Source: Somniosus microcephalus
Taxonomy: Eukaryota
DNA: 64,000 nucleotides
Direction: 5' to 3'
NCBI GenBank assembly: GCA_052327205.1
Contig: CM126207.1
Coordinates: forward strand, 151,776,001-151,840,000
The notes below the pieces were generated by a model. That model was not told the DNA's origin and ran no database searches. It worked only from the letters and a program-made list of their open reading frames with translations. The position numbers and the translations under genes are program-made. This document shows positions 1 through 56,259 of this stretch, piece after piece. Each line of letters starts with the position of its first letter. Within the stretch, counting starts at the first letter, position 1.

Positions 1-3000
1 GATCACACGGTACGCAACTCAAATCAGAAAGTACGCTGCTCTGATCAGACTGTACGCTGCTCTGATCAGTCTGTATGGTGCTCTGATCAGGCTGTAAGCT
101 GCTCTGATCAGGCTGTACGGTGCTCTGATCAAACTGTATGGTGCACCGATCAGACTGTACGTTGCTCTGATCAGACTTCATGCTGCTCTTATCAGACTGT
201 ACACTGCTCTGATCAGACTGTACGTTTCTCTGATTAGACTGTACGCTGCTCCGATCAGACTGTATGGTGCTCTGACCAGTCTGCTCAATGCTCAGATCAC
301 ATTGTACACTGCTCTGATCAGACTGTACGGTGCTCTGATCAGACTGTACGGTTCTCCAATTTTACCATATGATGCTCTGATCCAACTGTACAATGCTCCG
401 ATCTGACTGTACGCTGCTCTGATCAGACTTTACATTTCCCCGGTAAGACTGTACCATGTGCTGATCAGACTGTACGGTTCTCTGATCGGACTGTACGGTG
501 CTCTGATCAGAATCTAAGCTGCTCTGATCAGATTGTACACTGCTCCGATCAGACTGTACACTGCTCTGATCAGACTGTAAGCTGCTCTGATCAGACTGTA
601 TGGTCCCCCGATCAGAATGTACGGTGCTCTGGTCAGAATGTAAGCTGCTCTGATCAGACAGTACGTTGCTCTTAACAGATTGTATGATGCTCCGATCAGA
701 CTGCACCATTCTCCGATCAGACCGTACGATGCTCTGACCACACTGTACGATGCTTTGATCTGACTGTATGCTGTTCTGATCAGACTGTACGTTTCCCCGA
801 TCAGACTGTACCGTGCTCTGATCAGACTATATGGTTCTCTGATCAGAATGTATGGTGCTCTGATCTGACTGTAAGCTGCTCTGATCAGACTGTACGGTGC
901 TCTTAACAGACTGTATGGTGCTCTGACCAGACTGTACGGAGCTCCGATCAGACTGTACGCTGGTCTGAACAAACTGTACGCTGCTCTGATCAGTCTGCAT
1001 GCTGCTTTGAACAGATTTTACGCTGCTCTGTTCAGACTGTATGTTGCTGTGATCAGTCTGTACGCTGCTCCAATCAGACTGTACGATGGTCTGATCAGAC
1101 TGTTCGATGCTCAGATCAGACTGTATACTGCTCTGATCAGACTGTATGCTGTCTGATCAGACTGTACGTTGCACCGATCAGACTGTACGGCGCTCTGATC
1201 AGACCATGGGCTGCTCATATCAGACTGTACGATGCATTGTTCAGACTGTACACTGCTCTGATCAGACTGTACGTTTCTCCAATCAGACTGTATGCTGCTC
1301 TGATCAGACTGTATGGTTCTCCGTTCAGACTGTACCCTGCTCCGAATAGTCTGTATGGTGCTCCGATCAGACTGTACGCTGGACTGATCAAACTCTACGG
1401 TGCTCTGATCGGACTGTACCGTGCTCCGATCAAACTGTACGGTGCTTTGATCAGACTGTACTCTGCTCTGATCGGACGGTACGCAACTCAAATCAGAAAG
1501 TACGCTGCTCTGATCAGACTGTACGCTGCTCTGATCAGTCTGTACGGTGCTCTGATCAGGCTGTAAGCTGCTCTGATCAGACTGTAGGGTGCTCCGATCA
1601 GACTGTACGTTGCTCTGATCAGACTTCACGCTGCTCTTATCAGAATGTACACTGCTCTGATCAAACTGTACGTTTCTCTGATTAGACTGTACGCTGCTCC
1701 GATCAGACTGTATGGTGCTCTGATCAGTCTGTTCAATGCTCAGATCAGACTGTACACTGCTCTGATCAGACTGTACGGTGCTCTGATCAGACTGTACGGT
1801 TCTCCAATCAGACCATATGATGCTCTGATCCGACTGTACAATGCTCCGATCCGACTGTACGCTGCTCTGATCAGACTTTACATTTCCCCGGTAAGACTGT
1901 ACCATGTGCTGATCAGACTGTACGGTTCTCTGATCGGACTGTACGGTGCTCTGATCAGACTCTAAGCTGCTCTGATCAGATTGTACACTGCTCCGATCAG
2001 ACTGTAAGCTGCTCTGATCAGACTGTACAGTTCCCCAATCAGAATGTACGGTGCTCTGATCAGACTGTAAGCCTCTCTGATCAGACAGTATGGTGCTCTT
2101 AACAGACTGTATGATGCTCTGATCAGATTGCTGCATTCTCCGATCAGACCGTACGATGCTCTGACCACACTGTACGATGCTTTGATCTGACTGTATGCTG
2201 TTCTGATCAGACTGTACGTTTCCCCGATCAGACTGTACCGTGCTCTGATCAGACTATATGGTTCTCTGATCAGAATGTATGGTGCTCTGATGAGACTGTA
2301 AGCTGCTCTGATCAGACTGTACGGCGCTCTTAACAGACTGTATGGTGCTCTGACCAGACTGTACGGAGCTCCGATCAGACTGTATGCTGGTCTGATCAAA
2401 CTGTATGCTGCTCTGATCAGTCTGCATGCTGCTTTGAACAGACTTTACGCTGCTCTGTTCAGACTGTATGCTGCTGAGATCAGTCTGTACGCTGCTCCAA
2501 ACAAACTGTACGATGGTCTGATCAGAAAGTTTGATGCTCAGACCAGACTGTATGGTATCTGATCAGACTGTACGTTGCTCCGATCAGACTGTACGCTGCT
2601 CCGATTAGACAGTATGGTGCTCCGATCAGACTGTATGCTGGTCTGATCAGACTGTACGCTAGTCTGATCAGACTGTACGCTGCTCATATCAGACTGTTCA
2701 TTGCTTTGATCAGAATGTATGCTACTCCGATCTGAATGCAAAATGCTCCGACTGGACTATACACTGCTCTGATCCAACTGTACGATGCACTGATCAGACT
2801 GTATAATGATCTGATCAGACTTTTCGATGCTCTGATTAGACTGTACGGTGCTCTGATCAGACGGTACGCTGCTCAGATCAGACTTCACGCTGCTCTGATC
2901 AGACTGTACGCTGCTCATATCAGATTGTTTGATGCTCTGATCAGACTGTATGCTACTCCGATCAGAATGCACAATGCTCCGATCAGACTGTACACGTCTC

Positions 3001-5015
3001 TGATCCAGCTGTACGATGCTCTGATCAGACTGTATGATGATCTGATCAGAATTTTTGATGAGCTGATTAGACTGAACGATGCTCCGCTCAGACTGAACGA
3101 TGCTCCGTTCAGACGGTACGGTGATTCGACCAGACTGTACGCTGCTCTGATCAGACTGTACGCTGCTCTGATCAGACAGTTCAATGCTCAGATCAGACAG
3201 TACGATGCTCTGATCAGATTGTATGATTCTCTGATCGGACTGTACACTGCTCTGATCCGACTGTACGATGCTCTGTTCAGACTGTATGATGATCTGATCA
3301 GACTGTTTGTTGCTCTGATTAGTCTGTACGCTGCTCAGATCAGACTGTACGATGCTCAGATCAGACTGTACGGTTCTTCGATCAGATGGTACGCTGCTCA
3401 GATCAGACTGAACGATGCTGCGATCAGACTGAACGATGCACCAATCAGTCTGTACAGTGCTCCGAACAAACTGTACGCTGCTCTGATCAGACTATGCTGC
3501 TCTGATCAGACTGCTCGATGCTCTGATTAGACTGTATGATGCTCCGTTCAGACTGTACGCTACTCTGACCAGAATGCACAATGATCCGATCAGACTGCTC
3601 ATGGCTCCGATTGGTCTGTACGCTGCTCTCATCAGACTCAACGCTGCTCTGATCAGACTGCATGGTGCTCTGATCAGCTGTACGGTGCTTCGCTCAGACT
3701 GTACGGTGCTTCGATTAGACTGCACGGTGCTCTGATCAGACTGTACGCGGCACTGATCAAACTGTACGGTGCTCTGATCAGATTGTACGGTGCTGTGATC
3801 AGACTGTATGTTGCTCTGATCAGACTAAACGCTGCTCTGATCAGACTGTACGCTGCTCCTATCAGACGGTATGATGCTCTGATCAGATGGTACGGCGCTC
3901 TGATCACACTATATGCTGCTCATATCAGACTGTACGATGCTCCGTTCAGACTATAAACTGCTCTGATCAGACTGTATGTATCTCCAATCAGACTGTACGC
4001 TGCTCTGATCAGCCTGTATCGTTCTCCGATCAGACTGTACACTGCTCCGAGTAGTCTGTATGGTGCTCAGATCAGACTGTACGCTGGACTGATCAAACTG
4101 TACGGTGCTCTGATCAGACTGTACGGTGCTCCGATCAGACTGTACTGTGCTCTGATCAGACTGTACGCTGCTCTGATGAGACTGTACGGTGCTCTGATCA
4201 GGCTGCAAGCTGCGCTGATCAGACTGTACGTTGCTCTGATCAGACTGTATCGTGCTCTGCTCAGACTGTAGGGTGCTCCAATCAGGCTGTCCGTTGCACT
4301 GATCAGACTTCATGCTGCTCTTATCAGACTGTACACTGCTCTGATCAGACTGTACGTTTATCTGATTAGACTGTACGCTGCTCCGATCAGACTGTATTGT
4401 GCTCTGATCAGTCTGTTCAATGCTCTGATCAGACTGTACGATTCTCAAATCAGGCCATAAGATGCTCTGATCTGACTGTACAATGCTCCGTTCTGACTGT
4501 ACACTGCCCCGGTAAGACTGTACCATGTGCTGATCAGAGTGTACGGTTCTCTAATCGGAATGTACGGTGCTCTGATCAGACTCTAAGCTGCTCTGATCAG
4601 ATTGTACACTGCTCCGATCAGACTGTACACTGCTCCGATCAGACTGTAAGCTGCTCTGGTCAGACTGCATGGTTCCCCGATCAGACTGTACCATGCTCTG
4701 ATCAGACTGTACGCTTCTCTGATCAGAATGTATGGTGCTCTGATCAGACTGTACGCTGCTCTGATCAGACAGTACGGTGCTCTTAACAGACTGTATGATG
4801 CTCTGATCAGATTGTACCATTCTCCGATCAGACCGTACGATGCTCTGATCACACTGTACGATGCTTTGATCTGACTGTATGCTGTTCTGATCAGACTGTA
4901 CGATTCCCCGATCATACTGTACCGTGCTCTGATCAGACTATATGGTTCTCTGATCAGAATGTACGGTGCTCTGATCAGACTGTAAGCTGCTCTGATCAGA
5001 CTGTATGGTGCACTT

Positions 5016-5604
5016 TGTGATGAAATATATGTCTTCATCAGCCCCTGTGTTTTACCTGCATTGTATTGTGTGTACCGCCCCCTTTTCCCCTATTGTGTTT
5101 ATTGGCTCCGCCCCTGTCTTTTGTCATATAAAGTTCTCAAGAGCTGTATGAGTCATTCTGCCAGACGAATCCGATGTGGAATGACGTGCAATGTTCTTAG
5201 CGATTAAAAGCCTTCAGTTGAATCCTTTAACTTCTTGTCTTTGAGTTATTGATAGGCATAGTGGTTAGCACGGTTGCCTCACAGCGCCAGGGACCCGGGT
5301 TTGAATCCGGCCTCGGGTGACTGTCTGTGTGGAGTTTGCACATTCTCCCCGTGTTTGCGTGGGTTTCCTCCGGGTGCTCCGGTTTCCTCCCACAGTCCAA
5401 AGATGTGCGGGTTAGGTTGATTGGCTATGATAAAATTGACCCTTAGTGCTAGGGGGATTAAATACGTGGGGTTACGGGGATAGGGTGGGATATGTGTTGG
5501 TGTAGGGATTACGGGGATCGGGTGGGATATGTGTCGGTGCAGGCTCGATGGGCCGAAATGGCCTCTATCTGCACTGTGGGGTTTCTGTGAATCTGTGAAA
5601 ATCA
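5016..5604 (+). mobile_element. Solo Gypsy-type LTR with a SINE inserted near its 3' end
   Basis: Starts TGTGATG and ends ...ATCA, with imperfect TSD cactt/cacat in the satellite. Contains TATAAA and ATTAAA. Its 3' end (ttgataggcat..atca) resembles the end of the LTR at 47941-48262 (ttgataggtatatca). Confidence 0.7.
5260..5599 (+). mobile_element. tRNA-derived SINE (HE1/V-SINE type), slightly 5'-truncated
   Basis: Box A/B-like head (gtggttagca...ggtttgaatcc), V-domain core (gtgtggagtttgcacattctcccc...ggtttcctcccacagtccaaag) and CR1-like tail (ggccgaaatggcct). Near-identical to 40267-40558. Confidence 0.88.
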
Positions 5605-7775
5605 CACATAACAGACTGTATGGTGCTCTGACCAGACTGTACGGAGCTTCGATCAGAATGGACGGTGCTCTGATCAGAATGTATGGTGCTCTGATCAGAC
5701 TGCTCGATACTCAGATCAGACTGTACACTGCACTGATCAGACTGTACCGTGCTGTGAACAGACTGTGTGTTTCTCTGAACAGACCGTACGATGCTCTGAT
5801 CAGATGGTGCGATGCTCCCATCTGACTGTACGCTGCTCTGACGTACGGTTCCCCGATCAGACTGTACGGTGCTCTGATCAGAATGTAAGCTGCTCTGATC
5901 AGACTGTACAGTGCTCTGATCAGACTGTATGGTGCTCTGATCAGAATTTACTGTGCTCCGATCAGACTGTACGTTGCTCTGATCAGATTTCATGCTTCTT
6001 TGAACAGACTGCATGTTTCTCTGATCAGACTGTACGCTGCTCCGATCAGACTGTAAGCTGCTCTGATCAGACTGTACGTGGCACTGATCAGACAGTATGG
6101 TGCTCTGATGAGACTGTACGGTGCTCCGATCAGACTGTATCTTGCTCTGGTCAGACTGCACGCTGCTCTGATCAGACTGTACACAGCTCTGATCAGACTG
6201 TACGGTTCTCCTATCAGACTGTACGCTGCTCTGATCAGATTGTACGCTTCTCCAATCAGACTGTACGCTGCTCCGATTAGACTGTATGGTACTCCGATCA
6301 GACTGTACACTTGTCTGATCAAATTGTATGGTGCTCTAATCAGACAATTCGCCGCTCCAATCAGACTTTACCCTGCTCCGATCAGACTGTACGTTGCTCT
6401 GATCAGAATTCATGCTGCTCTGATCAGAATGTATGCTGCTCCAATCAGACTGTATGCTGCTCTGATCAGACTGTACGATGCTCTGATCAGACTGTTTGAT
6501 GCTCTGATCAGACAGTTCGATGCTCAGATCAGACAGTACAATGCTCTGATCTGGATGTATGATGCTCCGATCGGACTGTACACTGCTCTGATCAGATTGT
6601 ACGGTGCTCTGATCAAACTGTACGATGCTCTGATCAGACTGTACACTGCTCTGATCAGACTGTACGATGGTCTGATCACACTGTACGATGCTCTGATCAG
6701 ACTGTACAATGCTCTGATCAGACTGTACGATGCTCTGATCAGACTGTATGATGATCTGATCAGACTGTTCCTTGCTCTGATTAGAATGTACCCTGCTCAG
6801 ATCAGACTGTACGATGCTCAGATCAGACGGTACGATGCACTGATCAAACTGTACGATGCTCCTTTCAGACTCTATGCTACTCCGATCAGAATGCACAATG
6901 ATCCGATCAGACTGTTCGAGGCTCCGATCAGACTGTACGCTGCTCTGATCAGACTGCGCTGCTCTGATCAGACGGCATGGTGCTCCGATCAGACTTTACG
7001 ATGCTTTGCTCAGAGTGTACGGTGTTTCGATTAGACTGTACGGTGCTCCGATCAGGCTGTACGCTGCACTAAACAAACTGTACGATGCTCTGATCAGATT
7101 GTACATTGCTCCGATCAGACTGTATGTTGCTCTGATCAGATTACACGCTGCTCTGATCAGACTGTACGCCGCTCCTATCAGACGGTATGATGCTCCGATC
7201 AGACTGTACGGTGCTCTGATCAGAATATATGCTGCTCATATCAGACTGTACGATGCTCCATTCAGACTGTACACTGCTCTGATCAGACTGTACGTTTCTC
7301 CAATCGGGCTGTACACTGCTCTAAACAGACTGTATGGTTCTCCGATCAGACTGTGCCCTGCTCCGAGTCATCTGTATGGTGCTCCGATCAGGCTGTACGC
7401 TGGACTGATCAAACTGTACGGTGCTCTGATCAGACTGTACGGTGCTCCAACCAGACTGTATGGTGCTCCGATCAGGCTGTTTTCTTCTCCAATCGGATTC
7501 TACGCAGCTCAAATCAGACAGTGCGCTGCTCTGATCAGATTGTACGCTGCCCTGATCAGACTGTACAGTGATCCGATCATGCTGCATGGTGCTCTGATCA
7601 GACTGTACGGTCCTCCGATCAGACTGCGCAGCTCTGATCAGACTACACAATGCTCTGAGCAGACTGTATGCTGCTTGATCAGGCAGTATGCTAATCGTAT
7701 CAGACTGTACGCTGCTCGGGCCAGATAGTACGGTGCTTGATGAGACTGTACGCTGCTCTGATCAGACTGTATGCT

Positions 7776-9321
7776 TGTAGGGGGTTTCTCTTGCTCTTTC
7801 TGGTCTCTGCCAGGCTTCGTGCAATAATTACCCTTGAGTGGTTTGACCCACTCCCCCTACGGTTCTAGACCTTGGACTTAGGTGCAGAGAACAGTAGTGC
7901 AGAGAAAGAACTCAACAGACCAGGTTGAATAGCACGAAATGGATGCTTTTATTTTTAAACAGTTTGAAGCATTACAAAATACATGTCATAGGCACAGATT
8001 AAAGTTACTACAATCATGCACAAATTTATGAACTTGACTCTATGGAAATGGGGAACACACGGCACATCTTAAAAGGGAAAACACATTACGGTTACCCTTA
8101 ACTCCCTCCCCTATACCTAAACTAAGTTTTGACCTGGGGAACTTGGGATCATGCTCACCACTCTTGAAATCACGAAAAAGGGGGTTCGCAGCCTTTTCGC
8201 ACCGCTTTCCGTCGTCACGTGGATTTGGGAACTTCTGGCGCAGTCGATATTCTCTCTCCCTCGAGGCGGTGGGGTAGACACAGCCTCGATGAGCGCTCGT
8301 CAAGGTTGAGATCCACTATTGTGGATTTGGGTTCATGGAGCAGACCTTCAGCTGCAGGCTGTTGAAGAACTGCATGCAAATGGGAGAATCTCTCCGGCCT
8401 GGATCGTCGGTTCTCCAGAGGGCTTCTTCTCCGTCGGCCTGGGTCATTGATGATCTCCCGACCCCAGTACCCGGGCCACCCTCGTCGTCTTCTCGTCGTG
8501 GCCGAGCCTTGTTTGGCTGAACACCGACCACGTTGTCTTTTCACCGAAATTGTCCGTCTTTAAAAAGACGAAACGTCTTCATCGATTCCGCATCTATCGA
8601 AGTGGAAGAGGCGCCGATCCTGGCACCATCTGTCCTTCGTACGTTCCTTGTAGAAGAAGTTCTTGAAGAAGTAGAAGTCTGAAGTCGCCCAGCCAGAAGC
8701 ATCAGTGAAGTGAAGTACGAAGTAACTTAGATGGACTTTCAATCCATAGTTATACTCTTTTGGGACAGTCTTATCTCCCGCCAAATCATAGTCCTGTCTT
8801 TGTATTAATTTTGGTGGGCAGAAATCTCTGCAGAGGCGCTTTGTCTTGTAATGGGAGCCGGTGATAAATTAACTGGCCTTCCTGGCCGATAATGTCTTTT
8901 AATGTCTTTTACATTGTCATCGCGACTCGGTTCGCATATTGATCGGTTCGGAGATTTTCCTTGATGGCTGCTAAACGGTTTCTCCATTGTACAATAAATG
9001 GGTATAAGTGTTTTTGCATTGTCCGCCCATATCTTGATGGGCCCCATCCTGTACTTAGAATCCATTGAATATGTATGCTGTTTCCCTGAGTTTCGGTTCC
9101 CAGATACTGGCTTTCGCGGGCTTACTGTCTTCAATCCACAAGCCTGTCTGGCTTGCAGTAACAGAAATAAAATGGTCCAGAAAACTGATCATGAGGCCCG
9201 GCGGCCATTTTGTATGCCCTTTTATCAAAGGTTTTTCTGTGCAAGCTTACTTTGGTCAATAAACAGTCTTATTTTATCCGGTTTTCTTGCGTGATTTTTG
9301 CTGAAAATTTCGAATCTTACA
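7776..9321 (-). repeat. 3' LTR of element 1
   Basis: TGTA...TACA termini. Direct repeat of 15329-16875 with roughly 40 substitutions and one indel counted by eye. Preceded on the minus strand by AGGGGGG (9324-9330, PPT-like). AATAAA on the minus strand near 7950. Confidence 0.95.
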
Positions 9322-9713
9322 GGCCCCCCTGTGATACTGATAGCTTGCTTAAAGTATCAATAATCCTTGGTGAGCAAATTTTCCCTGATTCCCCACATCC
9401 AAACATTCCTGGCACTTAACTATCTATGACCCTTACGACACATGCAGTTCCCATTTCCGAAGAAAACGAAAATTACCTTGTGCACAGTTGGATAATCATA
9501 GACAGCATATCTTAAACTATAACACATTCATCTGTCAGATGTGCGGGGGTTGATACCCCCTTGCGCCATCCGCATACACCTTTTATTATTCCAAAAAACT
9601 TAAGAACGACTAATAACATAACAATACTTATTTCCTTAAAACCCAAAACAAAAGAAAAAAAAAAAACGCGAATGGTCAAAATTTAAAAATGGGGGGACGC
9701 TTAATCTTCAATA

Positions 9714-12080
9714 CTAGCAGCTTAAAGTGGGGTGTCTTCTTCCCCCATTCGCACATAGCGTTCTCTCCATTCTCCTGCGTTCTCGTGCCTCTGGAGGCGT
9801 TTGCCTCTTTTGCAATGCACGGAAGAGCAAAAATATCACAATTAAAACCTAACACACTACTAGGATGTGGGATGCTATTGTAATCCAGGCCGGGACCTCT
9901 ATGTTAGTGAACAAGTCCCACCATGGTGGGATGGTTATGTCCAATATGTCTTTTCCTATCTCTAAAGTCTTCTGCTCCAGTGTGTAGAAATGTTTCTGTG
10001 AAACTATAACGGCTTTTAAAATCTTTGTGAGGTGTTCGGGAAGAGGGGGAATGACATAACCAAAATGCGCGACAAATCGTTGCGAGTCTGTGAAATTCTC
10101 TTTGATAGTGATGTGAATGGTGGAGGGCGCAGGAATGGGAACAATTCGTTTTTGTGCCACTTGAACCTCGGCCCTGGGTTTGAAACAGAAACTGCTATCA
10201 CCGATCGAACACCACTCGTGTTGTCCGTAGCGGTAATGAGGCGCTGCAGTGGTGACGCAGTATGTCCCACCCCTGATATATGCTACCTGCGGGGGCACAT
10301 GGTCCTCTGCCATTGCCTCCATGGTGCAATTTATCGGCTTCGCGCTAGCGGTTCTGAACCCACACTGTGGTTTCAAAAAGGCATTCAAGTGCTGGGGACA
10401 CAGGATGATGTGTGCCCCCCGGCTCCGACATCCCGAGAGGTCGGTGCCTGTCATCGTACGCTTCCATCTGATGACGTAAGGCGGGACCACTGCGTAACGA
10501 ATGTGTGCGCCCCCCTGAATGACTCCAATGTTCTCTACCCTGTATACCGGGGCGGGCTTTGCTGTGGGACCCAACACCGGCATTCTTACCACTATTCCCA
10601 TGATAGTATGATTCGAATGTCCGCAGTCCACTGGGACTGGGTACGCTTATGCAGCTAGTCTGAGCTGGCACGGGCTTAATGCATTCTCAAAAGGGTGGAG
10701 CGCTTGCAAGTGCTTGTTGCTAATCCAGGACGGGACCAAACCCTGTTTTAAATCCTCAAGATTACTGCGGCCCTTGCCCAGTAACCACGCCCCATACAGC
10801 ACACAGGCCTCATTTTGCGCAGCTTGATCGGACGCATTCTGATCCTCCTTAATGAGCGCATTGACCGTTCTCGCGTGTTTCTCCAGCTCAGCTATTATAT
10901 CCTTAAAGTGTAGTGTCATGGCCTGGTCCTCATGCAACTCAGAACCCACTACCTTATTTTCGTCTGTCAGTATGTTCCTTAACTGGGCTTTTAAACCGTT
11001 GATCTGTGTCTGCAGCTCCACGTTATCTAGAGCGTTGATGACAGATGTCCCGGTATTAAAAGCAGTGAATATGTCATTTACAGTACCCCTTCTTTGCCTC
11101 CCGACTCGATCCAAAACTTCTGGCAGTGTGGTGTATAATTTGTCTTTGTCGATGTCGGCAAAGTCAAATTCGTAAAATTGTCTAAACATTCGGGTTAACA
11201 GGACCTGGTATAATTGTTCCGTTTCATTGGGACACCACTCCGGCAATCGTACCTCAGTGAGATTTAATATCACTGAGGCCACCGCGTAGTGTACCCCTTG
11301 GTACAGCACCTGACCGGTGGGTACCAATACTAAACCATTCCCGGGTCCCTTGGTGGTGGTTGGGCACCCTTCTATCTGGGCTAGCGCTACCGGAAGCGTG
11401 GGCAGGGGCTTGCGTGGGCGGGTGATGAGTTCAGTGGCGTTTACCGGAATAGGGGAGTATGGGGCTCCGCACGCTCGAGTGCTGACATCCCATCTCATCC
11501 CCTTCCCTTCATCCTGCCACTGCCTCTGGAAGAAGATGGATACGCCCTTGGGGCACACGTGTCTCGAACCCCACATACAGACATATATTCCTTCATCTGG
11601 TTCCCACCATTTGTCCCAACACACACGTAATTGTCCGTGAGTCCCCGTAATAGTCCGATGGGTATTATTACCCAGTCGCTCCCACTCGACCGCAGAGTTT
11701 CTCATGTCCTTTCCCAGCTTTCATAGCCACCACCATCGCCTTAGTGGTATGTTCCCATTGCACACCAGACAAATCCTCTTTCCCACGGTAACGCTGACTC
11801 TGGGTGCAAGGATCCTCACCCGAGGGCATGTTAACGAAGTCTTTTGGCAGGCAAAACCGAAATTGCTGGAATATTCCGTAGAATTCATTCCCAGCCAACC
11901 TGGCCATCTCCCTTGGTGGAAGTAGGTGGCGGTTTCCTCAACCGCTCGCTCCTCTGTCCCATCCGTTGCGATGGGGGCCATGTCCCCGGAGCACCCGAAG
12001 ATGATGACGTCCTTGGTGCGGCCTCGGTAGGCCCACCCGCACCCGATCGCCATGAACGCGATGAGAATATTTTCCATCAT
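9714..12080 (-). pseudogene. env: env: class I fusion glycoprotein-like, ~788 codons, three in-frame stops
   Basis: ORFs 11721-12101, 10647-11705 and 9849-10631 share one frame. In order: signal peptide MMENILIAFMAIGCGWA, Ig-like segment, furin site RQRR (11088-11099), fusion-peptide-like GTVNDIFTAFNTGTSVINAL, heptad repeat, Cys-rich region, WWDLF, TM (WITIASHILVVC*VLIVIFLLF), basic tail. Stops at 11721, 10647 and 9849. Confidence 0.85.
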
Positions 12081-13393
12081 ATCCCAGGTTTCTGTAACCA
12101 ATAAAATGATGTAGCCGGGCTCCCAATAGGTGCTGGCCTAATCCCTGTGAGGGCTGTCGCGTGCCACACCCTGCGGTGGGGCTGCACTGACCTTCGGCTT
12201 TGATCCCCGCAGCCTGTCGCTGTTGAACGGGGACCATGCCTTCCTGGGGCTGCTCTAAGCCGTGGTTGGGAAAAATGGGGAGAATCTGGCCAAAACTTTC
12301 TGGGCTGGGGCGCTCGAGCCGACCTACGAGGGGCTGCTTTGGGTTGGGCTCCCGGGGCTGATGGACCAGGGGTTGGGACTGTTACCGTCACAGCCTGTGG
12401 TTCCTCCACAGCTGCCGGCTCCAGCTCCCCTCCCTCAGGCTCCGCCCCCCCGGGGGCGGGATCTGTGGCTTCCGACTCCACCTCACCTGTCCCTACAGGT
12501 AGTGAGTCTCTGCCCCCATTCCCTACCTCACCCAAGCTTGAGTCAAGGGCGGGGTCATCGTCCTCTGACTCTTCCTCCTCCGTGATTGGGTCTAAGGCGA
12601 GGTCGAGCTGTTTGGGCTCTCTCCTGCCTGAATCCCATTCAAAAGGTGAGACCTCCCACTCCAATGGGATGGCCTCTCCCTTCACGCAGGCTACTGTTCC
12701 AGCCTGTGTGGTCTGTGACTCTGTTACAGGCTGAGGATCTTTGTTCTCAGACCTGGTCCCCTTTGATGGGCCTTGTGCACCCGGTTTAAACAGTTTACAC
12801 CGCTTCATGTGAAACCACCTTTTGCGTTGGGACACCTCTACTGTATGAGTGGCGCAGACCGGCGGATTTTTCACTGATTCCGGTTCTTCCTCCTGGTCTA
12901 CGGTTCTCTCGCCAGCGCATAGGGTTAGACCCAAGAATTTTACTTCTCGCCGGCCAACCCGCACCTTCGTAGGGGTTTCCTTGACGCTTTCTATCCCCTT
13001 CACACTCGTACCCTCTCCCCAGAGACAATGATTTCTCAGGTCCACGTGGATCCCGTGGGCTACCAAGAAATCAGACCCCAGGACTCCCGTTCCACCTCCC
13101 ACCTCTCACTTCATCAGGATACACTTCCACTTGGTGCGGAGTGGTCCTAAATGAATGGAGAGGGGGAGGGAATGTGCGCCAGCCTGTTCTTCGCCCGTGA
13201 AGCCCAACAGATGATATGGGACCCCGGTGGACAGAGGCGAGGTGGTGGGGTTATCTGCGTGGATTACGGTGCACGATGCGCCCGTGTCCAACAGATAGGT
13301 TTCCTTCACCTCCTCTACCTCCATTTCTATGAGGGGTCATCTCCATGCGTCATAGCGGAGCAGACACAGGTAGACGGGCTGCGCTGACTCTAG
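12077..13393 (-). pseudogene. pol: Protease plus internally deleted pol remnant with acidic/Pro-rich tail
   Basis: LLDTGAS...VLGSDFL aspartic protease, in frame with gag past the stop. Followed by an RT fragment (EVKFLG), an integrase C-terminus-like KRWFH..CKLF, and a tail containing PRRSAR. RT/RH/IN cores are absent. Two in-frame TGAs in pro. Confidence 0.8.
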
Positions 13394-15325
13394 TCATTTG
13401 GGGACAGCGATCGGAGCTTCAGGAGCGCCAAGGCCGGTGGTGATTGCTATTTTCCCCTGCGAGGTCATCAGAGACCGCATTGTCTGTATGATTGACTCAA
13501 TCGCAGCGGGATCCACAACCGCACCACCCCCTGTGGTTGGGGCAGGTGCTACGGTTGGGCTCTGGACTGGTGCTGGGGCAGCGGTCTGGACTTGTGCTTG
13601 TGCTGGTGCTGGGGTAATGATCTGGCCGTGGGCTTGGACTTGGGCTATGGCTCGGTCTTGGGCTGCGGCAAATGCTCTCTCTCTCTTATCCTTCCATGGA
13701 TTTCTACAGTCCTTGCGCCAATGACCCTCCTTCCCACACCCGTAACAACTGCTGTTGGCTTGGGGAGGGCGATTTCCCTCCTGATGCCATTCCTTTTTTG
13801 CAGAAGCTGCGGGCCTCACCTCATGCACCTTTCCTTTTATAACAGGCGTTTTCTTACCCTTGTTGTTCCTATAAATGATCGTGAGCTGATCCAGCACTAG
13901 ATCCTCTGTGGAGCGGGCGTTAGTGGGGTCAAACCATGCTTTGGCCTGCTCCCTCACTACTGGCAAGCAACCTGCTACCAGGCACCGAAGCCAATGAGCC
14001 CTTTGTTCATTATTCAGCCCGGCCCAGGCCGGCCCACCCGGGCAGCTGCGCCGATGCACTGGCCACAACCTTTCGGCGAAAACCCGTGGGGGTTCTCCCT
14101 CTAGCTGCACTGTCTTTTCTAAACGGAGGAACAGAGTTCCGTCCCCCTCTCCCATAATCTCCAGAATCTCATCCCGTAGCAACTCATAGTCCCTGTGCCC
14201 TCTCTTGCTCTCGTCAGGGAGACGCTGGAGGAGCGAACTGTCCATGGAGAACAGCAGCATTTTAGACTGTTCCACCCCGTCGCAGTCATTGACTGCTGCG
14301 GTCTGCTCCACGTCCCTGAAATGCACGGAGGGATCTCCTGACTCGGAGAGTTTTGGGATGTGACTTATCATTTCTCTTAGCTGTCGTGCGCTATGGGGCA
14401 TTACGATCTGACTCTCAAGGGGTCCGTCATCGCCATTTGCTTCATTTGGACCGAGCCTCCGGTGTCTAGTTGGACACATCGGCGCCGGCCCTGACTCTAC
14501 TATCTGGGGTTGCTCTACCTCAGGACTCTCTTCCTCTACCGTCTCCGTCTCCTTCCCCGGAGTCCAAGACTCATCATAAGCAGGAGGCGCAGAGGGTTCA
14601 GGAGTTGCTACCCCAAATGCCTCTTGTGGAATCGGTCTTTTGGATTCCTTGGCTAGCAATAGCTGACTCGCTGGTGGATTTATGAGACACACCAACCCGT
14701 TTGCCTTGGCTAGGGCCATTCTCAGGTCCTCTTGAACCCTGCGGCAAGCGCTGTGGTCAGTGCTCTCCGATCTATCCTCCATGGCCATCTTATATGCTGC
14801 CCTGGCTCCCAGAAGTTTTTCCTCTTGGGCCTCTATTTGCTTGGCTAGACGGAAACACCTGTCTCTCATTCTACCTTCACTGGCCTTGGCCTCAATGACC
14901 TGACATTTTATATACTCTACCCGGGTTTTGTGGCAGCGAATTAGTGAGTGGCGTTCCTGATTCAGCATGTTAAGCGATTCAATCAGTTTTTGACCTCCCG
15001 CAACCTTTTCCTCTACGTCTGTAAGCAACCCGTTGATCTGGGCTGTCTGTGCTGCAACGACCTGGTCCAAAAGCTGGACTTGCTTCTTGTAGCACATCAG
15101 CCAGACCGCCTTCTCTACAGATTTCTTATGCTCTTTACCCGCTGTCCACTTGATGGCTGCGTCTAGCGGGCGCCTATCTCTCAACAGGTCAGATATCCAT
15201 TGTTTTGTGAGGTTGACTTTTCCAAAAACATAATCTGCTATTCTTTCATCCATCACATCTCGTTTACTCAGACCTTGATCTAACACACTACTTTCCTGCT
15301 GCCAAGGTCCTGCCGCGGTCGCCAT
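13394..15325 (-). CDS. gag: Gag, 643 aa, open
   Basis: N-terminal coiled coil, PSAPPAY late-domain motif, capsid-like region, single zinc knuckle CYGCGKEGHWRKDC. Clear homologue at 57101-58821. Confidence 0.9.
   Translation of the reverse strand: MATAAGPWQQESSVLDQGLSKRDVMDERIADYVFGKVNLTKQWISDLLRDRRPLDAAIKWTAGKEHKKSVEKAVWLMCYKKQVQLLDQVVAAQTAQINGLLTDVEEKVAGGQKLIESLNMLNQERHSLIRCHKTRVEYIKCQVIEAKASEGRMRDRCFRLAKQIEAQEEKLLGARAAYKMAMEDRSESTDHSACRRVQEDLRMALAKANGLVCLINPPASQLLLAKESKRPIPQEAFGVATPEPSAPPAYDESWTPGKETETVEEESPEVEQPQIVESGPAPMCPTRHRRLGPNEANGDDGPLESQIVMPHSARQLREMISHIPKLSESGDPSVHFRDVEQTAAVNDCDGVEQSKMLLFSMDSSLLQRLPDESKRGHRDYELLRDEILEIMGEGDGTLFLRLEKTVQLEGEPPRVFAERLWPVHRRSCPGGPAWAGLNNEQRAHWLRCLVAGCLPVVREQAKAWFDPTNARSTEDLVLDQLTIIYRNNKGKKTPVIKGKVHEVRPAASAKKEWHQEGNRPPQANSSCYGCGKEGHWRKDCRNPWKDKRERAFAAAQDRAIAQVQAHGQIITPAPAQAQVQTAAPAPVQSPTVAPAPTTGGGAVVDPAAIESIIQTMRSLMTSQGKIAITTGLGAPEAPIAVPK
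15307..15324 (-). promoter_or_regulatory. Primer-binding site, tRNA-Arg(TCG)
   Basis: TGGCGACCGCGGCAGGAC, 4 nt after the LTR end. Complementary to the 3' 18 nt of vertebrate tRNA-Arg-TCG (...GTCCTGCCGCGGTCG-CCA, recalled sequence). Confidence 0.85.
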
Positions 15326-15328
15326 TTC

Positions 15329-16875
15329 TATAGGGGGTTTCTCTTGCTCTTTCTGGTCTCCTGCCAGGCTTCGTGCAATAATTACCCTTGAGTGGTTTGA
15401 CCCACTCCCCCTACGGTTCTAGACCTTGGACTTAGGTGCAGAGAACAGTAGTGCAGAGAAAGAACTCAATAGACCAGGTTGAATAGCACGAAATGGATGC
15501 TTTTATTTTTAAACAGCTTGAAGCATTACAAAATACATGTCATAGGCACAGATCATAGTTACTACAATCATGCACAAATTTATGAAATTGACTCTTTGGA
15601 AATGGGGAACACACGGCACATCGTAAAGGGGAAAACACATTACGATTACCCTTCACTCCCTCCCCTATACCTAAACTAAGTTTCGACCTGGGGAACTTGG
15701 GATCATGCTCACCACTCTCGAAATCGCGAAAAAGGGGGTTCGCAGCATTTTGGCAGCGCTTTCCGTCGTCACGTGGATTTGGAAACTTCTGGCGCAGTCG
15801 ATATTCTCTCTCCCTCGAGGCGGTGGGGTAGACACAGCCTCGATGAGCGCTCGTCAAGGTTGAGATCCACTATTGTGGATTTGGGTTCATGGAGCAGACC
15901 TTCAGCTGCAGGCTGTTGAAGAACTGCATGCAAATGGGAGAATCTCTCCGGCCTGGATCGTCGGTTCTCCAGAGGGTTTCTTCTCCGTCGGCCTGGGTCG
16001 TCGATGATCTCCCGACCCCAGTACCCGGGCCACCCTCGTCGTCTTCTCGTCGTGGCCGAGCCTTGTTTGGCTGAACACAGACCACGTTGTCTTTTCATCG
16101 AAATTGTCCGTCTTTAAAAAGACGAAACGTCTTCATCGATTCCGCATCTATCGAAGTGGAAGAGGCGCCGATCCTGGCACCGTCCGTCCTTCGTTCGTTC
16201 CTTGTAGAAGAAGTTCTTGAAGAAGTAGAAGTCTGAAGTCGCCCAGCCAGAAGCATCAGTGAAGTGAAGTACGAAGTAACTTAGATGGACTTTCAATCCA
16301 TAGTTATACTCTTTTGGGACAGTCTTATCTCCCGCCAAATCATTGTCCTGTCTTTGTATTAATTTTGGCGGGCAGAAATCTCTGCAGGGGCGCTTTGTCT
16401 TGTAACGGGAGCCGGTGATAAATTAACTGGCCTTCCTGGCCGATAATGTCTTTTAATGTCTTTTACATTGTCATCACGACTCGGTTCGCATATTGATCGG
16501 TCAGGAGATTTTCCTTGATGTCTGCTAAACGGTTTCTTCATTGTACAATAAATGGGTATAAGTGTTTTTGCATTGTCTGCCCATATCTTGATGGGCCCCA
16601 TCCTGTACTTAGAATCCATTGAATATGTATGCTGTTTCCCTGAGTTTCGGTTCCCAGATACTGGCTTTCGCGGGCTTACTGTCTTCAATCCACAAGACTG
16701 TCTGGCTTGCAGTAACAGAAATAAAATGGTCCAGAATACTGATCACGAGGCCCGGCGGCCATTTTGTATGCCCTTTTATCAAAGGTTTTTCTGTGCAAGC
16801 TTACTTTGGTCAATAAACAGTCTTATTTTATCCGGTTTTCTTGCGTGATTATTGCTGAAAATTTCGAATCTTACA
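15329..16875 (-). repeat. 5' LTR of element 1
   Basis: Direct repeat of 7776-9321. The terminal CA on the PBS side is mutated to TA. Confidence 0.95.
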
Positions 16876-40558: not shown

Positions 40559-42861
40559 ATGTAACTAATGCTCCATTTATCTGCAGCGGGATCATCCATT
40601 TGTCCTCTTTTACTGCATTAACTTTATGTTCAGCATTGTCTATTTCTGAGGGCTGCACATTTTCTGTATCTTTTTTGATATCGTCACATGCCACCATTCC
40701 TACAAAAAATGTCTCACTTAAATCAGTGTCCTCAATCACATTAACTCGTTGCCCTTTCATCGTTTTTACTTTTGAAAAGCATTGTTTGGCAAAGTGATTC
40801 TTTCCATTACACTTTGTGCACATTTTTCCAAACGCTGGGCATTGTCTTAACTGGTGTTTGTAACCACAGCGTTTACAATTAAAAATTTCATCCTCCGATT
40901 GCTTTTCATTTCTGTTCTGCCCATGTTTCTTCCCCTTGTAGGACACAGCACCGACAGCAGCATTATCACTCATTACATTCGCATCATTATTGATTTCACT
41001 GAAAGTCTTCGCGTGATTTCGAGCTAGCTCGCTGGCTTTGCATATTTTCACTGCATTTTCCAAATTTAGTTCGGTTTCCCTCAACAGACGTTCCCTGACT
41101 TTTTTATCATGAATACCAAACACAATCTGGGCAATAATCATGGATGCTTTGAGCTCAGAGAAATTACATGTCTGTGCTTTCAGCTTTCAGTTTCAGATCA
41201 GTTATAAAGCTAACAAAAGTCTCATTTTGTTGCTGTGTCCGAGAACGGAAGATGTATCTTTCATACGTCTCATTCTTTTTGGGAGAGCAATGTGCATCAA
41301 ATTCTTTTAGCACATCTTCTAATTTTTCTCTGTTCTCCGCTGGATTAAATACAAATGTATTAAATACCTCTATTGCCTGTGGGCCTGCAACTGTAAGCAG
41401 CAACGCTATCTTCCTTGCGTCTGGCTTCGTACTGAATCCGATGGCTGCAATGTAGAGTTCGAATTGTTGTTTAAAAATCCGCCAATTGTAGTCGACATTT
41501 CCCTCGAGATTCAAACCTCCTGGTGGCTTCAAATTCTCCATGTCGCTTTTCACAATTTTCAGCAGATCTTCACCATGTTATGTTCATTAATAACTAGACA
41601 TTCTTATTATGAACACAGCTAGCTTTTGCTAGTTACTTTATTGAGCCATGTGGACTAGGTACAGCATCTTGTAGAGATGCAGCATTGTGCTCCTGTGTGC
41701 CTTCTGGGTAGCCTAGCCTCATGGGTAATGTAGTCTTAATATATATATAGCTGGGTAGTGTAATTTTATACATACAGCTCTATACAGCTCCACTGCTCCA
41801 CCTAGTGTCCACCACAGAATGACATGTTATTGATCACTACAATTACCACCTACCGCCCTCCCTCAGCTGATGAATCAGTACTCCTTCATGTTGAACACCA
41901 ATTGGAAGAAGCACTGAGAGTAGCAAGGGCACAAAATGCCCTCTGGGTGGGGAAATTCAATGTCCATCATCAAGAGTGGCTCGGTAGCACCACAACTGAC
42001 CGCGCTGGCCGAGTCCTAAAGGATATAGTTGCCAGACTGGGTCTGCGACAGGTGGTAAGAGAACCAACAAGAGGGAAAAACCTACTTGATCTCATCCTCA
42101 CCAATCTAACTGTTGCAGATGCATCTGTCCATGACAGCATTGGTGGAAGTGACCACCGCACAGTCCTTGTGGAGACGAAGTCCCGTCTTCATGTTGAGGG
42201 TACCCTCCACCGTGTTGTGTGGCACTACCATGGTGCTAAATGGGACAGATTTTGAACAGATCTGGCAACTCAAAACTGGGCATCCATGAGGCACTGTGGG
42301 CCATCAGCAGCAGCAGAATTGTATTCAACCCCAATCTGTAACCTCATGGCCTGGCATATCCCTCACTCTACCATTACCATCAAGCCGGGAGATCAACCCT
42401 GGTTTAACGAAGAGTGCAGGAGAGCATGCCGAGAACAGCACCAGGCATACCGAAAAATGAGGTGTCAACCTGGTGAGGCTACAACACAGGACCACTTGCA
42501 TGCCAAACAACGGAAGCAACATGCGATAGACAGAGCTAAGCGATCTCACAACCATCGGATCAAATCAAAGCTCTGCAGTCCTGCCACATCCAGTCGTGAG
42601 TGGTGGTGGACAATTAAACAGTTAACAGGAGGAGGAGGCTCCAAAAATATCCCCATCCTCAATGATGGTGGAGCCCAGCACGTGAGTGCAAAAGACAAGG
42701 CTGAAGCGTTTGCAACTATCTTCAGCCAGAAGTGCCGAGTGGATGATTAATCTCGACCTCCTCCTGAGGTCCCCAGTGTCACAGATGCCAGTCTTCAGCC
42801 CATTCAATTCACTCCACGTGATGTCAAGAAATGGCTGAAGACACTGGATACTGCAAAGGCT

Positions 42862-44349
42862 ATGGGCCCTGACAATATTCCGGCAATAGTACTGAAGACT
42901 TGTGCTCCAGAACCTGCTGCACCCCTAGCCAAGCTGTTCCAGTATAGCTACAACACTGGCATCTACCCGGCAATGTGGAAAATTGCCCAAGTATGTCCTG
43001 CCTACAAAAAGCAGGACAAATCCAACCCGGCCAATTACCGTCCCATCAGCCTACTCACAATCATCAGCAAAGTGATGGAAGGTGTCGTCGACAGTGCTAT
43101 CAAGCGGCACTTACTCAGCAATAACCTGCTAACTGACGCCCAGTTTGGGTTCCGCCAGGGTCACTCAGCTCCTGACCTCATTACAGCCTTGGTCCAAACA
43201 TGGACAAAAGAGCTGAACTCAAGAGGTGAGGTGAGAGTGACTGCCCTTGACATCAAGGCAGCATTTGATCGAGTGTGGCATCAAGGAGCCCTAGCAAAAC
43301 TGAAGTCAATGGGAATCAAGGGGAAAATTCTCCATTGGTTGGATTCATACCTAGCACAAAGGAAGTTGGCTGTGGTTGTTGGAGGTCATTCATCTCAATC
43401 ACATGACATCACTGCAGGAGTTCCTCAGGGCAGTGTCCTAGGCCCAACCATCTTCAGCTGTTTCATCAATGAACTTCCCTCCATCATAAGGTCAGAAGTG
43501 GGGATGTTCGCTGATGATTGCACACTGTTCAGCACCATTCGAGACTCATCAGATACTGACGCAGTCCGTGTCCATATGCAGCTGGACCTGGACAACATTC
43601 AGACTTGGGCTGACAAGTGGCAAGTAACATTCGCACCACACAAGTGCCAGGCAATGACCATCTCCAACAAGCGAGACTCTAACCATCTCCCCTTGACATT
43701 CAATGGCATTACCATCGCTGAATCCCCCACTATCAACATCCTGGGGGTTACCATTGATCAGAAACTGAACTGGACCAGCCATATAAATACTGTGGCTACA
43801 AGAGCAGGCCAGAGGCTGGGACTTCTGCAGCGAGTGTCTCACCTCCTAACTCCCCAAAGCCTTTCCACCATCTACAAGGCACAAGTCAGGAGTGTGATGG
43901 AATACTCTCCACTTGCCTGGATGAGTGCAGCTCCAACAATACTCAAGAAGCTCGACACTATTCAGGATAAAGCAGCCCGCTTGATTGGCACTCCATCCAC
44001 CACCTTCAACATTCACTCCCTCCACCACCGGCGCACTGTGGCTGCAGTGTGTACCATCTACAAGATGCATTGCAGCAACTCGCCAAAGCTCCATCAACAG
44101 CACCTTCCAAACCCGCAACCTCTACCACTTAGAAGGACAAGGGCAGCAGACGCATGGGAACATCACCACCTACAAGTTCCCCTCCAAGCCAGACACCATC
44201 CTGACTTGGACCTGTATCGCTGTTCCTTCACTGTCGCTGTGCCAAAATCTTGGAGCTCCTTTCCTAACAGCATTGTGGGTGTACCTACACCATATGGACT
44301 GCAGCAGTTCAAGAAGGCGGCTTACCACCATCTTCTCAAGGGCAATTAG
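42862..44349 (+). pseudogene. LINE reverse transcriptase domain (longest open segment of ORF2)
   Basis: 495-aa ORF with non-LTR RT motifs GVPQGSVLGP and FADD. Confidence 0.88.
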
Positions 44350-46726: not shown

Positions 46727-48284
46727 GAAATGGCGACCACGGCAGGACACCAGCAACAGGGGTGCAATAGAGTAGACGATGGTTCGGAAGAGCAAACCAT
46801 GATGGAGGAAAGGATCAAAGACCGAATGGATGAGCTACAGAATTTGTTCATCCCAGTTTGGCATAAATATAAAACAAAAAAGGTGACTCAACCATTGCTA
46901 ACAAGGGAAATTAGGGATAGCATAAGATCCAAGGAGACGACATATAAATTGGCCAGAAAAAGCAATAATCCTGAGGATTGGGAGCAGTTTAGGATTCAAC
47001 AAAGGAGGAAAAAGGGATTAATTAAGAAAGGGAAAATAGAATATGAGAGTAAGCTATCAGGGAACATAAAAACTGACTGTAAAAGCTTTTATAGATATGT
47101 GAAGTGAAAAAAATTGGTGAAGTCAAGCGTAGGTCCCTTGCAGTCAGAATCAGGGGAATTTATAATGGGAAACAAAGAAATGGCAGACCAATTAAATTCA
47201 TACTTTGGTTCTGTCTTCACAAAGGAGGACACAAATAACCTCCCAGAGATGCCGGGGAACATAGGGCCTGATGAAAGGGTGGAACTGAAAGAAATCCGTA
47301 TTTGTAGGGAAATGGTGTTAGGAAAATTGATGGGACTGAAGGCCAATAAATCCCCAGCGCCTGATAATCTACATCCCAGGGTATTAAGGAAGTGGCCCTA
47401 GAAATAGTAGATGCATTGCTGGTCATCTTCCAGAACTCGATAGACTCTGGAAGAGCACCCATGGAGTACCCAAGAGTACTCAAAAAAGGTGGTAGAGAAA
47501 AAGCGGGGAATTATAGACCAGTATGCCTGACATCGGTAGTGGGGAAAATGCTAGAGTTTATTATAAAATATGTAATTGCAGAGCACTTGGAAAGCAGTGA
47601 CAGGATCGGACAAACTCAACATGGATTTACAAAAGGTAAATCATGCTTGACTAATCTACTGGAATTTTTTGAGGATGTAAGTGGTAAAATAGATAAGGGA
47701 GAACCAGTGGATGTGGTGTATTTGGACTTTCAGAAGGTTTTCGATAAGGTCCCATACCAGAGATTAGCATGCAAAATTAAGGCACATGGGATTGGGGGCA
47801 AGGTATTGACTTGGATAGAGAACTGGTTGGTGGACAGAAAGCAAAGAGTTGGAATAAATGGGTCATTTTCCGAGTGGCAGGCAGTGACTAGTGGGGTACC
47901 TCAAGGATCAGTCATGGACCCCAGCTGTTCACAATATATATGTGGTAAACCACTTTTACCGTTCACTATCGTTACACTATAGTTATCACTGTTAGATCGT
48001 TTCCCTATAGTTATCACTGTTCACATTGTTGTATCACTGTACGAGGTCGCCTCTTGTCACGCTGCTATACCTGGGCTGACCACTGCCGACTCCGCCCATG
48101 GCTCCACCTACCTGCCCAGGTATAAAGGTGGTCGACTGGCTGGTATTCCTCCTTCTTGGATCCGATCACCCACGAGGGTGGGCTCTGTTATTTAGTCAAT
48201 AAAAACCTATAGTTACTTTCTTAACTCGTCGCTTTTCATTGGACGAATTGATAGGTATATCAATTTTATTGACTAAATTTTAAA

Positions 48285-49202
48285 ATGTCGTCACTTGAGC
48301 AGCCAAACAACCAGTCAACGGAGCAGCCAAACGACCAGCCAGACACCCAGCTACAACAGCCACAGCAGCCGGCTTGGCTGCGAGCCCTCAAACCACCGTA
48401 CCTGGATCTAAACCCACAAGCAACAAACGCAGCCCTCGACTTCAAACACTGGCTGTGCTGCTTCGAATCCTACCTGGAAGAATCCGGCGTCCCCCAGAGA
48501 TCCAAACTAAGAGTTCTGACTGCCCAAGCGAGTCCTAAAGTATACGCACTCATCCAGGACATTACTACTTACGAGGCCGCTATCAACCTACTGAAACAGC
48601 AGTACCGGAGCCCGGTAAATTCCATGTATGCCAGACACCTCCTAAGATCCCGCCCGCAACAGCCAGGAGAGTCTGTAGCTGAATTTTTACGGGCGCTACG
48701 AACACTCGGCAGGGACTGTGACTTTAAAGCAGTATCGGCTGCAGAAAACACTGAAGATAACATCCGCGATGCCTTCGTGAAAGGCCTTCGGTCCGACTAC
48801 TCACGGCAGAGACTGCTGGAATCAAAGGACCTCGACCTGAACACAGCTGCAGCCTTGGCCTACTCCCTAGAAGTGACCCAGCGGGACCTCGAGGTGTATT
48901 CCAGGTACAGTTCGCGACTCTGGGACTCGGGCCCGACCCCGACCGCAATACCCCTCGTAGCGCCACCCCCGGGACCTACCTCAGCATCGGCGTCCCGGAC
49001 CCGATCGGGACCGCCACCCCCGGTACCGGCTGCGACATCGGAGCCCCGCGACCGGGCCGCCGGCTGCTTCTTCTGTGGGCAGGCGAAACACCCGAGGTCG
49101 CGCTGCCCAGCCAAAAACGCGACGTGCTCCAGCTGCCTGAAGAAAGGCCACTTCGCGAAGGTCTGCAGAGGGAGAGCAGCAGAGGCCAGCAGTGCCTCAT
49201 GA
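48285..49202 (+). CDS. gag: Gypsy Gag with two zinc knuckles
   Basis: CFFCGQAKHPRSRC and CSSCLKKGHFAKVC. Same frame as pol; the intervening TGAs look mutational. Confidence 0.85.
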   Translation: MSSLEQPNNQSTEQPNDQPDTQLQQPQQPAWLRALKPPYLDLNPQATNAALDFKHWLCCFESYLEESGVPQRSKLRVLTAQASPKVYALIQDITTYEAAINLLKQQYRSPVNSMYARHLLRSRPQQPGESVAEFLRALRTLGRDCDFKAVSAAENTEDNIRDAFVKGLRSDYSRQRLLESKDLDLNTAAALAYSLEVTQRDLEVYSRYSSRLWDSGPTPTAIPLVAPPPGPTSASASRTRSGPPPPVPAATSEPRDRAAGCFFCGQAKHPRSRCPAKNATCSSCLKKGHFAKVCRGRAAEASSAS

Positions 49203-49262
49203 GAACTGTGGGGGTGGCCATCTTTTATCAAGGCCACAGATGAGCAATGAGGGTGGCCATCT

Positions 49263-55700: not shown

Positions 55701-56259
55701 AGAACCAATCATCTGAGGCAACAACTCAGATTCAAGGACAATCAATCAGAAAAACCTCAAGACACGTGACGCCTCCTGAGAGACTCATTGAGCAAATTTA
55801 AGGACTATTGTTAAAGAAGGAAGTAATGTTATCTTATTCTTTCTTCAAGTTCTAGTGTATTGACATATTTCATGTGAACACACAAAGCAAGGGTAAGAAA
55901 CCTTGATCATGATAATGATAATGTAAGTTCATTAAATGTTGTTAGTTAAAAGTAAAATACTTTTGTTTTAAGAAAGGGAGATGTAAGGATATCAGCAAAT
56001 ACTGATGATATTTGTCTGTGTTTGATTACTTATGCCTTACGGCATATTTGTCTGTGTTTTTGATTACTTGTGCCTGACCAGCAGAGGTCATGTGAGAGAC
56101 AAGCAGTCCAGAGGAGTTTTACTTTCAGTTTCATTCTAGCTGCATCACAGCATAGTGTGTTCTGTAAAAAGCTGTAGAAAGTCTTGAACAAGACTTTAGA
56201 TTAAACAATATTCTCTTTCAGAAATGAGTCTTTATTGAACCCAAAAAGAAACCAAAACA
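52746..56259 (+). mobile_element. Gypsy LTR retrotransposon lacking RT/RH (non-autonomous)
   Basis: LTRs 52746-53022 and 55982-56259, TSD GGGCA, PBS TGATGTCAGAAGTGG (tRNA-Leu-like), PPT AAGAAAGGGAGA. Confidence 0.93.
53184..55801 (+). pseudogene. gag-protease fused in frame to integrase; frameshift near 55250
   Basis: Gag with knuckles, then KLDTGA, then directly ...YTPGK..ADTLSR, IN zinc finger and core (GADLF, TDKGPQF, GLVEK). Confidence 0.85.

Follow-up and report, generated by a model that had tools for sequence, protein, structure and literature searches.

The window, the whole 64-kb stretch of DNA that we analyzed, contains a defective LTR provirus inserted into an array of a 21-bp satellite, and the features of this provirus are collected in Table 1. 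Its pol deletion is also present in 2 of 29 other copies examined, and the window element may be a recombinant, pol-less form, judging from sequence comparison. Stops interrupt the env reading frame at codons 120 and 478, and within the membrane anchor the frame is broken. Because of these two stops, the frame break, and the deletion of pol, the window copy cannot make the Env protein.

Table 1. Positions of the provirus and its parts in the window
Feature	Position	Strand	Remarks
Defective LTR provirus	7776..16875	-	TG...CA ends; 4-bp target duplication TGCT
5' LTR, about 1.55 kb	15329..16875	-	97.4% identity with 3' LTR over 1545 bases
3' LTR	7776..9321	-	Short polypurine tract just ahead
gag frame with CCHC zinc knuckle	13394..15325	-	Pfam zf-CCHC, E 0.00027
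pol remnant, protease part and integrase tail	12206..13393	-	RT, RNase H, and most of integrase deleted
env start and hydrophobic leader	12030..12080	-	Residues 1-17; signal peptide judged by eye
Pre-Ig segment, conserved	11829..12029	-	Residues 18-84; invariant C30, W59, W62
Ig-superfamily-like domain	11520..11828	-	About residues 85-187; stop at 11723-11721 in the window copy
Pro/Thr-rich linker	11367..11456	-	Residues 209-238; least conserved part
F2-like segment	11088..11366	-	Ends in furin-type site RQRR, residues 328-331
F1-like segment, membrane anchor, and tail	9725..11087	-	Stop at 10649-10647 and frame break in the anchor region in the window copy

The surroundings of the provirus and its less regular parts can be described briefly. 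About 1400 units of the satellite flank it (window 1-7775 and 16877-38425). A primer-binding-site-like sequence (15307-15325, minus strand) lies just past the 5' LTR and overlaps the first gag ATG. On the gag/protease side, window 12818-14059 is only ~85% identical to a family copy, compared with 94-96% on the env side, and a ~200-bp piece at the pol deletion matches every close copy poorly. Both ~1.55-kb LTRs keep minus-strand frames of 100 to 127 codons; the snakehead retrovirus (SnRV) possesses a 3' ORF.

The env frame opens at ATG 12080 on the minus strand, and positions 11810-11577 encode Env residues 91-168. The initial annotation placed an immunoglobulin-like domain here, based on a B-strand Cys, a C-strand Trp, and a D-x-G-x-Y-x-C motif. 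We located all three hallmarks: C107 (plus C104) for strand B, W116-118 for strand C, and D-x-G-x-Y-x-C ending in C168. C107, W116-118, and C168 are invariant in 9 of 9 subfamily copies, and 21 Cys and Trp residues are invariant across residues 1-245 of these copies. The domain also carries two N-glycan sequons, at residues 128 and 138. Along the protein, the order is leader, pre-Ig segment, Ig-like segment, Pro/Thr linker, F2-like segment, furin site, F1-like segment, and anchor. The domain had been described as lying between the signal peptide and the F2-like part; this order is correct, but the domain is not flush with either neighbor, with ~65 residues before it and ~70 after it, and the F2-like part has its GNGL-type start at about residue 244. 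The pre-Ig segment (residues 18-84) has no Pfam hit and may lend the Ig domain its first strand.

The N-terminal segment of Env is very probably an Ig fold, based on several lines of evidence that are individually weak, none decisive alone. A Pfam search, one of the checks proposed with the initial annotation, gave a divided answer: Ig_3 matched 16 of 16 aligned N-termini of relatives, but always below the curated cut-off (best E 0.00098), with 15-17 bits in the tabulated members against a cut-off of 30 and a best E overall of 0.00035. With the whole, stop-containing Env of the window copy as query, Pfam and PDB sequence searches gave no Ig or F match. A profile built from 12 Ig segments, half of the window-family type and half of a second type found in sharks, matched 269 PDB sequences at E<=10, and 58 of the 60 listed are IgSF chains. 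Matches of this profile include DIP-alpha (4e-6, 3 domains summed), JAM-A (3e-4, 2 domains), and CRTAM (E 0.0018, a single domain). As a shuffle control, we built a profile from 30 host I-set domains of the same genome and scored each segment against it together with 200 shuffles. Four of the 200 shuffles scored at least as high as the window segment, and 0 or 1 did so for each of six uninterrupted relatives, at low absolute scores of 2.5-6.7 bits. The six second-type segments were reached by 1 to 76 of 200 shuffles, and three of them failed to beat the shuffles (29, 43, and 76). In the ESM Atlas, the segment scored 0.91 to Ig clusters, a score that shuffled proteins attain 4-10 times in 100.

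Structure prediction, also proposed as a check, pointed the same way, based on a low-confidence model. An uninterrupted natural copy served for the AlphaFold model, which spans residues 17-245 and has a mean pLDDT of 43 and a pTM of 0.41; its Ig part reaches pLDDT 53-68 and has eight predicted strands in Ig order. Foldseek matched this model to Ig V-type chains in every case among the matches listed (E 0.012-0.046), and antibodies are plentiful in the PDB. Ig domains make up all of the best 50 VIA matches (Z 6.2-7.2; 74-86 residues aligned at an rmsd of 2.1-2.9 A), at Z scores under 8, which according to the tool may signify only a common arrangement. Two further invariant cysteines, C104 and C154, align in the CRTAM comparison with positions of strands B and E that we take to face each other in V-domain registers. 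C104 and C154 would thus form a second disulfide in the Ig-like domain.

The remainder of Env is predicted to be a class I fusion protein of the paramyxovirus/pneumovirus F type. The initial annotation had called the Env fusion-type, and the body model (residues 225-740, 47 sequences, pLDDT 63) bears this out: Foldseek matched it to hPIV3 F at E 2.3e-11, with 231 matches at E<=0.001, and VIA gave Z 10.4-12.1 to F proteins. Among predicted viral proteins, the matches include lispivirus, baculovirus F, walleye epsilonretrovirus, and foamy envelopes, and the top match carries no name. The body sequence profile matches simian foamy Env (E 0.0016). After the furin site, RQRR 328-331, come long predicted helices and, in an uninterrupted copy, a hydrophobic peak at 729-760. 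The window-family Env thus resembles paramyxovirus/pneumovirus F in its predicted body fold and in its F2/F1 layout with a furin site, but identity is only 7-13% and F has no N-terminal head. Paramyxoviruses attach through a separate attachment protein.

The pol of a family copy has the order PR-RT-tether-RNase H-IN (Pfam RT, RT_RNaseH, RNase_H, and integrase); LTR-gag-pol-env with a tether plus a second RNase H is common to all retroviruses. The family RT has the motifs LPQGFH.SP.IFHQ, QYVDD.LL, and LDISNGFWSI in common with SnRV. Among named retroviruses it is closest to SnRV, at 44.7% identity (to a database protein matching the published SnRV RT); nine class I-type rows reach 34-40%, and five gypsy rows 30-36%. 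RTs of frog and coelacanth elements are closer than SnRV, mostly at 45-55%. A quick RT tree of 78 rows, which left out 1 of 71 database hits as short and included no lokiretrovirus (Loki) sequence, joined the family and SnRV in one 23-row clade (SH-aLRT 81). In a careful 34-row RT tree, also containing no Loki sequence, the family elements branch as a grade outside the class I clade and do not unite with SnRV in a single clade. SnRV-like is the best label for the element, as a candidate member of that group. The SnRV-like clade is known from fish, amphibians, reptiles, birds, and the elephant shark, according to the accessible portions of PMC12193657 and PMC4977317. Where SnRV-related and class III Envs are treated in the available parts of bioRxiv 10.1101/2021.11.23.469661 and PMC8278194, they are gamma-type, unlike the predicted F-type Env here.

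We rejected a lokiretrovirus identity: 24 of 24 published Loki RTs read PFG, and the family reads PQG like SnRV and other retroviruses, an exclusion that rests on RT motifs, not on phylogeny. As far as the accessible text and supplement of PMC7947760 go, Loki elements also combine an F-like Env and a tether plus RNase H with a leader, furin site, coiled coil, and anchor, and by eye a similar GP-x-x-G motif begins the F2-like part. The Loki sample comprised 18 of the 23 Envs in the supplement file, one of the 18 a fragment, and in 17 of the 18 the F2-start motif lies, by eye, within about 10 residues of the leader (PMC7947760). Compared with these Envs, the window-family Env has about 225 residues, including the Ig domain, inserted between leader and F2 motif. 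The same source, in its available part, reports 0 lokiretroviruses in 3 cartilaginous-fish genomes (PMC7947760).

We searched the 6.4-Gb genome for further copies of the N-terminal segment. Of 17,328 candidates, the best 150 were scored. Every one of them aligns with the N-terminal 217 residues at 93-100% identity, and 147 contain no stop inside the segment; as the best candidates, they are uninformative on copies without it. A more distant query again found the Ig segment in 150 of 150 scored copies, at 52-69% to that query, which adds further subfamilies. The presence of the segment in other family copies, on which the initial annotation had made its reading depend, was thereby confirmed. 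We compared 36 pairs from the nine subfamily copies, pairs that are not independent and whose pS (0.6-0.7) is near saturation. pN/pS was 0.26 for the Ig segment, 0.35 for the pre-Ig segment, 0.53 for the linker, 0.27 for F2, and 0.19 for F1, which indicates purifying selection on the Ig-like domain. Head identity is 69%, against 68% for F2.

A search of sequencing runs listed no RNA run containing the element. In two RNA runs of another organism, reads from both strands, mostly 90-99% alike, fall in all 30 bins into which the element was divided, and no splice joint has read support in these two runs. This shows that related copies are transcribed in the other organism and says nothing on production of the window env. 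Among viral contigs, 50 pattern matches yielded 0 confirmed relatives, and word-index protein searches for relatives yielded only 3 and 2. Named relatives of the Env come from sharks, rays, and frogs, from which we take the host to be probably a cartilaginous fish. The annotated Pristiophorus proteins P0011 and P0004 join Env pieces to a zinc-finger gene and a Niban-like gene; these fusions may be gene-prediction artefacts.

The N-terminal slot of related shark and frog Envs is modular, with other modules in the same place: the window Ig type, a second Ig-like type, a V-set-like domain, a Cys-rich segment, a short segment, or nothing. The initial annotation had overlooked this variety. The second, diverged Ig-like type occurs in Chiloscyllium P0016 (UniRef auto-name 'Ig-like domain-containing') and in own-genome copies. 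P0041 carries a V-set-like domain without the cysteines (V-set E 0.0015) that weakly resembles CEACAM/SLAM/TIGIT domains (E 0.2-1.5), and P0048 is headless, with the slot empty. Two frog Envs have another possible Ig-like segment, one with a weak match at E 0.21 and the other with none, and the two Cys-rich segments have no Pfam hit. Compared profile against profile, the two shark Ig types showed no significant similarity, with an alignment diluted by one full-length row. In a quick F-body tree (22 rows, three untrimmed), the window Ig type is sister to the Cys-rich and short types, with support of 86-100 along the path, and P0041 is sister to the headless P0048 with support of 100. The bodies of L091 and of L092, L093, and L098 are nearly identical, and their fronts are unrelated.

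The initial annotation had suggested that the Ig domain was acquired, and we looked for its host donor. None of the PDB sequences, the 47 hits among 1.84 billion representatives, or the 30 host I-set domains is a close one, and capture from a host IgSF gene found no backing in these sets, the best single-domain match being CRTAM at E 0.0018. We also rejected as donor the titin-like Ig repeats of another LTR element in the same genome, whose best domain score was 0.4 bits. That element (L131:1449-5924, and L132-L135) is about 4.5 kb long with LTRs of about 230 bp, and its L131 copy lies within a SnRV-like pol. In a single frame, it encodes a gypsy-like Gag, zinc knuckle, and protease together with three titin-like I-set domains that lack introns (E 2e-42 to titin in the PDB). 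The dispersed copies retrieved, 5 of 5, share about 96% identity, and the element has the appearance of a host mRNA that a retroelement captured and multiplied.

We infer that the Ig-like segment is probably a built-in receptor-binding head, likely exchangeable, on the predicted F-type Env of a SnRV-like ERV, one of the two roles suggested in the initial annotation. This reading fits because of the position of the segment, its linker, its conservation, and the exchange of modules, and it follows the analogy with the N-terminal IgV-like RBDs of gamma-type Envs and with the foamy RBD. After furin cleavage, the head would stay attached to the outer subunit, held by a flexible stalk at the trimer apex, where it would bind a cell-surface partner, possibly another IgSF protein. 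It would thereby replace the separate attachment protein of paramyxoviruses, and head exchange would alter cell or host range. Running counter to this reading, the head shows good conservation instead of the hypervariability often seen in antibody-exposed RBDs.

That conservation, with 21 invariant Cys and Trp in residues 1-245 across nine copies, speaks for a structural cap or shield that assists Env folding, holds the prefusion state, or covers epitopes, with attachment elsewhere in Env. The two sequons inside the domain (128 and 138) and the existence of headless relatives agree with such a role; the F-type fusogen can evidently work headless, because P0048 and 17 lokiretrovirus Envs have no head. 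We nevertheless consider a cap unlikely. A Pro/Thr linker stands between head and body, and unrelated modules sit on closely related F bodies (L091 versus L092/L093/L098; P0041 versus P0048). Because unrelated modules share the slot on similar bodies, an exchangeable ligand-binding head is favored over a fitted scaffold.

Less probable still is an immune decoy, the other role suggested in the initial annotation, here a mimic of a host IgSF receptor that damps lymphocyte or NK-like responses and is not an entry determinant. The best single-domain matches are indeed immune or adhesion IgSF proteins (CRTAM, JAM-A, and CD8alpha), as are the weak likenesses of the P0041 head (CEACAM/SLAM/TIGIT, E 0.2-1.5), but likeness to any host protein is at noise level, and a working mimic usually retains clear likeness to its model. 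The domain is also fused to an entry protein, where other Envs have their RBD. By contrast, a SIRP-like RBD retains up to 12 of 19 contact residues, according to the available part of bioRxiv 10.1101/2024.03.17.585361. The segment might instead be no Ig domain at all, and rather a Trp/Cys-rich beta-sandwich that is Ig-like by chance or convergence. Every score is weak taken singly, three of six second-type segments do no better than shuffles (29, 43, and 76 of 200), and the two shark Ig types find each other in profile-profile comparison at a probability of only 0.5% (E 0.11). However, the Ig clan is the only fold indicated by the sequence profile, the language-model features, the shuffles, and both structural aligners, and the hallmark residues sit on the expected predicted strands, which makes this the most improbable of the alternatives.

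Each ingredient of a receptor-binding Ig head on an F-type body has a precedent, and it is their combination that the literature searched did not show. N-terminal IgV-like RBDs of gamma-type Envs move between Envs, and one was captured from SIRP, according to the accessible part of bioRxiv 10.1101/2024.03.17.585361. In the portions of the literature available, the MLV/FeLV RBD, EnvP(b)1, and Env-Dbi resemble the window-family Env in having an Ig-fold domain at the Env N terminus; theirs stands on a gamma-type fusion subunit, whereas the window-family head stands on an F-type body. The Env-Dbi RBD has a clear host donor (SIRP), unlike the window-family Ig head, for which none was found. The available text of PMC11468914 describes the foamy-virus Env as an F-like fusogen with its own RBD, standing in for a separate attachment protein. 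It is thus, like the window-family Env, a retroviral Env with a paramyxovirus/pneumovirus F core. According to that text, a new fold placed immediately ahead of the furin site forms the foamy RBD, whereas the extra domain here is Ig-like and N-terminal. The initial annotation knew of no description of the architecture. We likewise found no Ig domain on an F-type retroviral Env in the openly readable literature searched, which also took in parts of PMC12583693, PMC12690878, PMC13709493, and bioRxiv 10.1101/2023.10.26.564294, but the N-terminal IgV-like RBDs and the foamy RBD precede it.

A receptor-binding head of this kind would be a third way for an F-type fusogen to find its cell, through an N-terminal, seemingly exchangeable Ig-like head. 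The other two are a separate protein, used by paramyxoviruses, and an internal insert, used by foamy viruses. Being small, conserved, and soluble, such a head also offers a direct handle for a receptor search, in a family with thousands of candidate copies in the genome. F-type Env on SnRV-like retroviruses bears on which envelope the first retroviruses had. More tentatively, the SnRV-like retroviruses of sharks, rays, and frogs could be an overlooked F-type Env lineage whose plug-in slot took host IgSF domains several times, with IgSF adhesion-type entry. If so, then together with lokiretroviruses, foamy viruses, and epsilonretroviruses, they would point to the F-type fusogen as the ancestral retroviral Env.

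Other retroelements occupy the far side of the window, and no tRNA genes were found within its 64 kb. A second SnRV-like gag-pol (57000-62700, plus strand) is broken and has 75-78% protein identity to the family Pol, with no env match for it within the window. By eye from translations, three further retroelement pieces lie on the plus strand: a LINE-type RT frame at 42751-44349, a gypsy-like gag-pol at 48273-52283 whose open frames are long, and a second gypsy-like element at 53172-55801.
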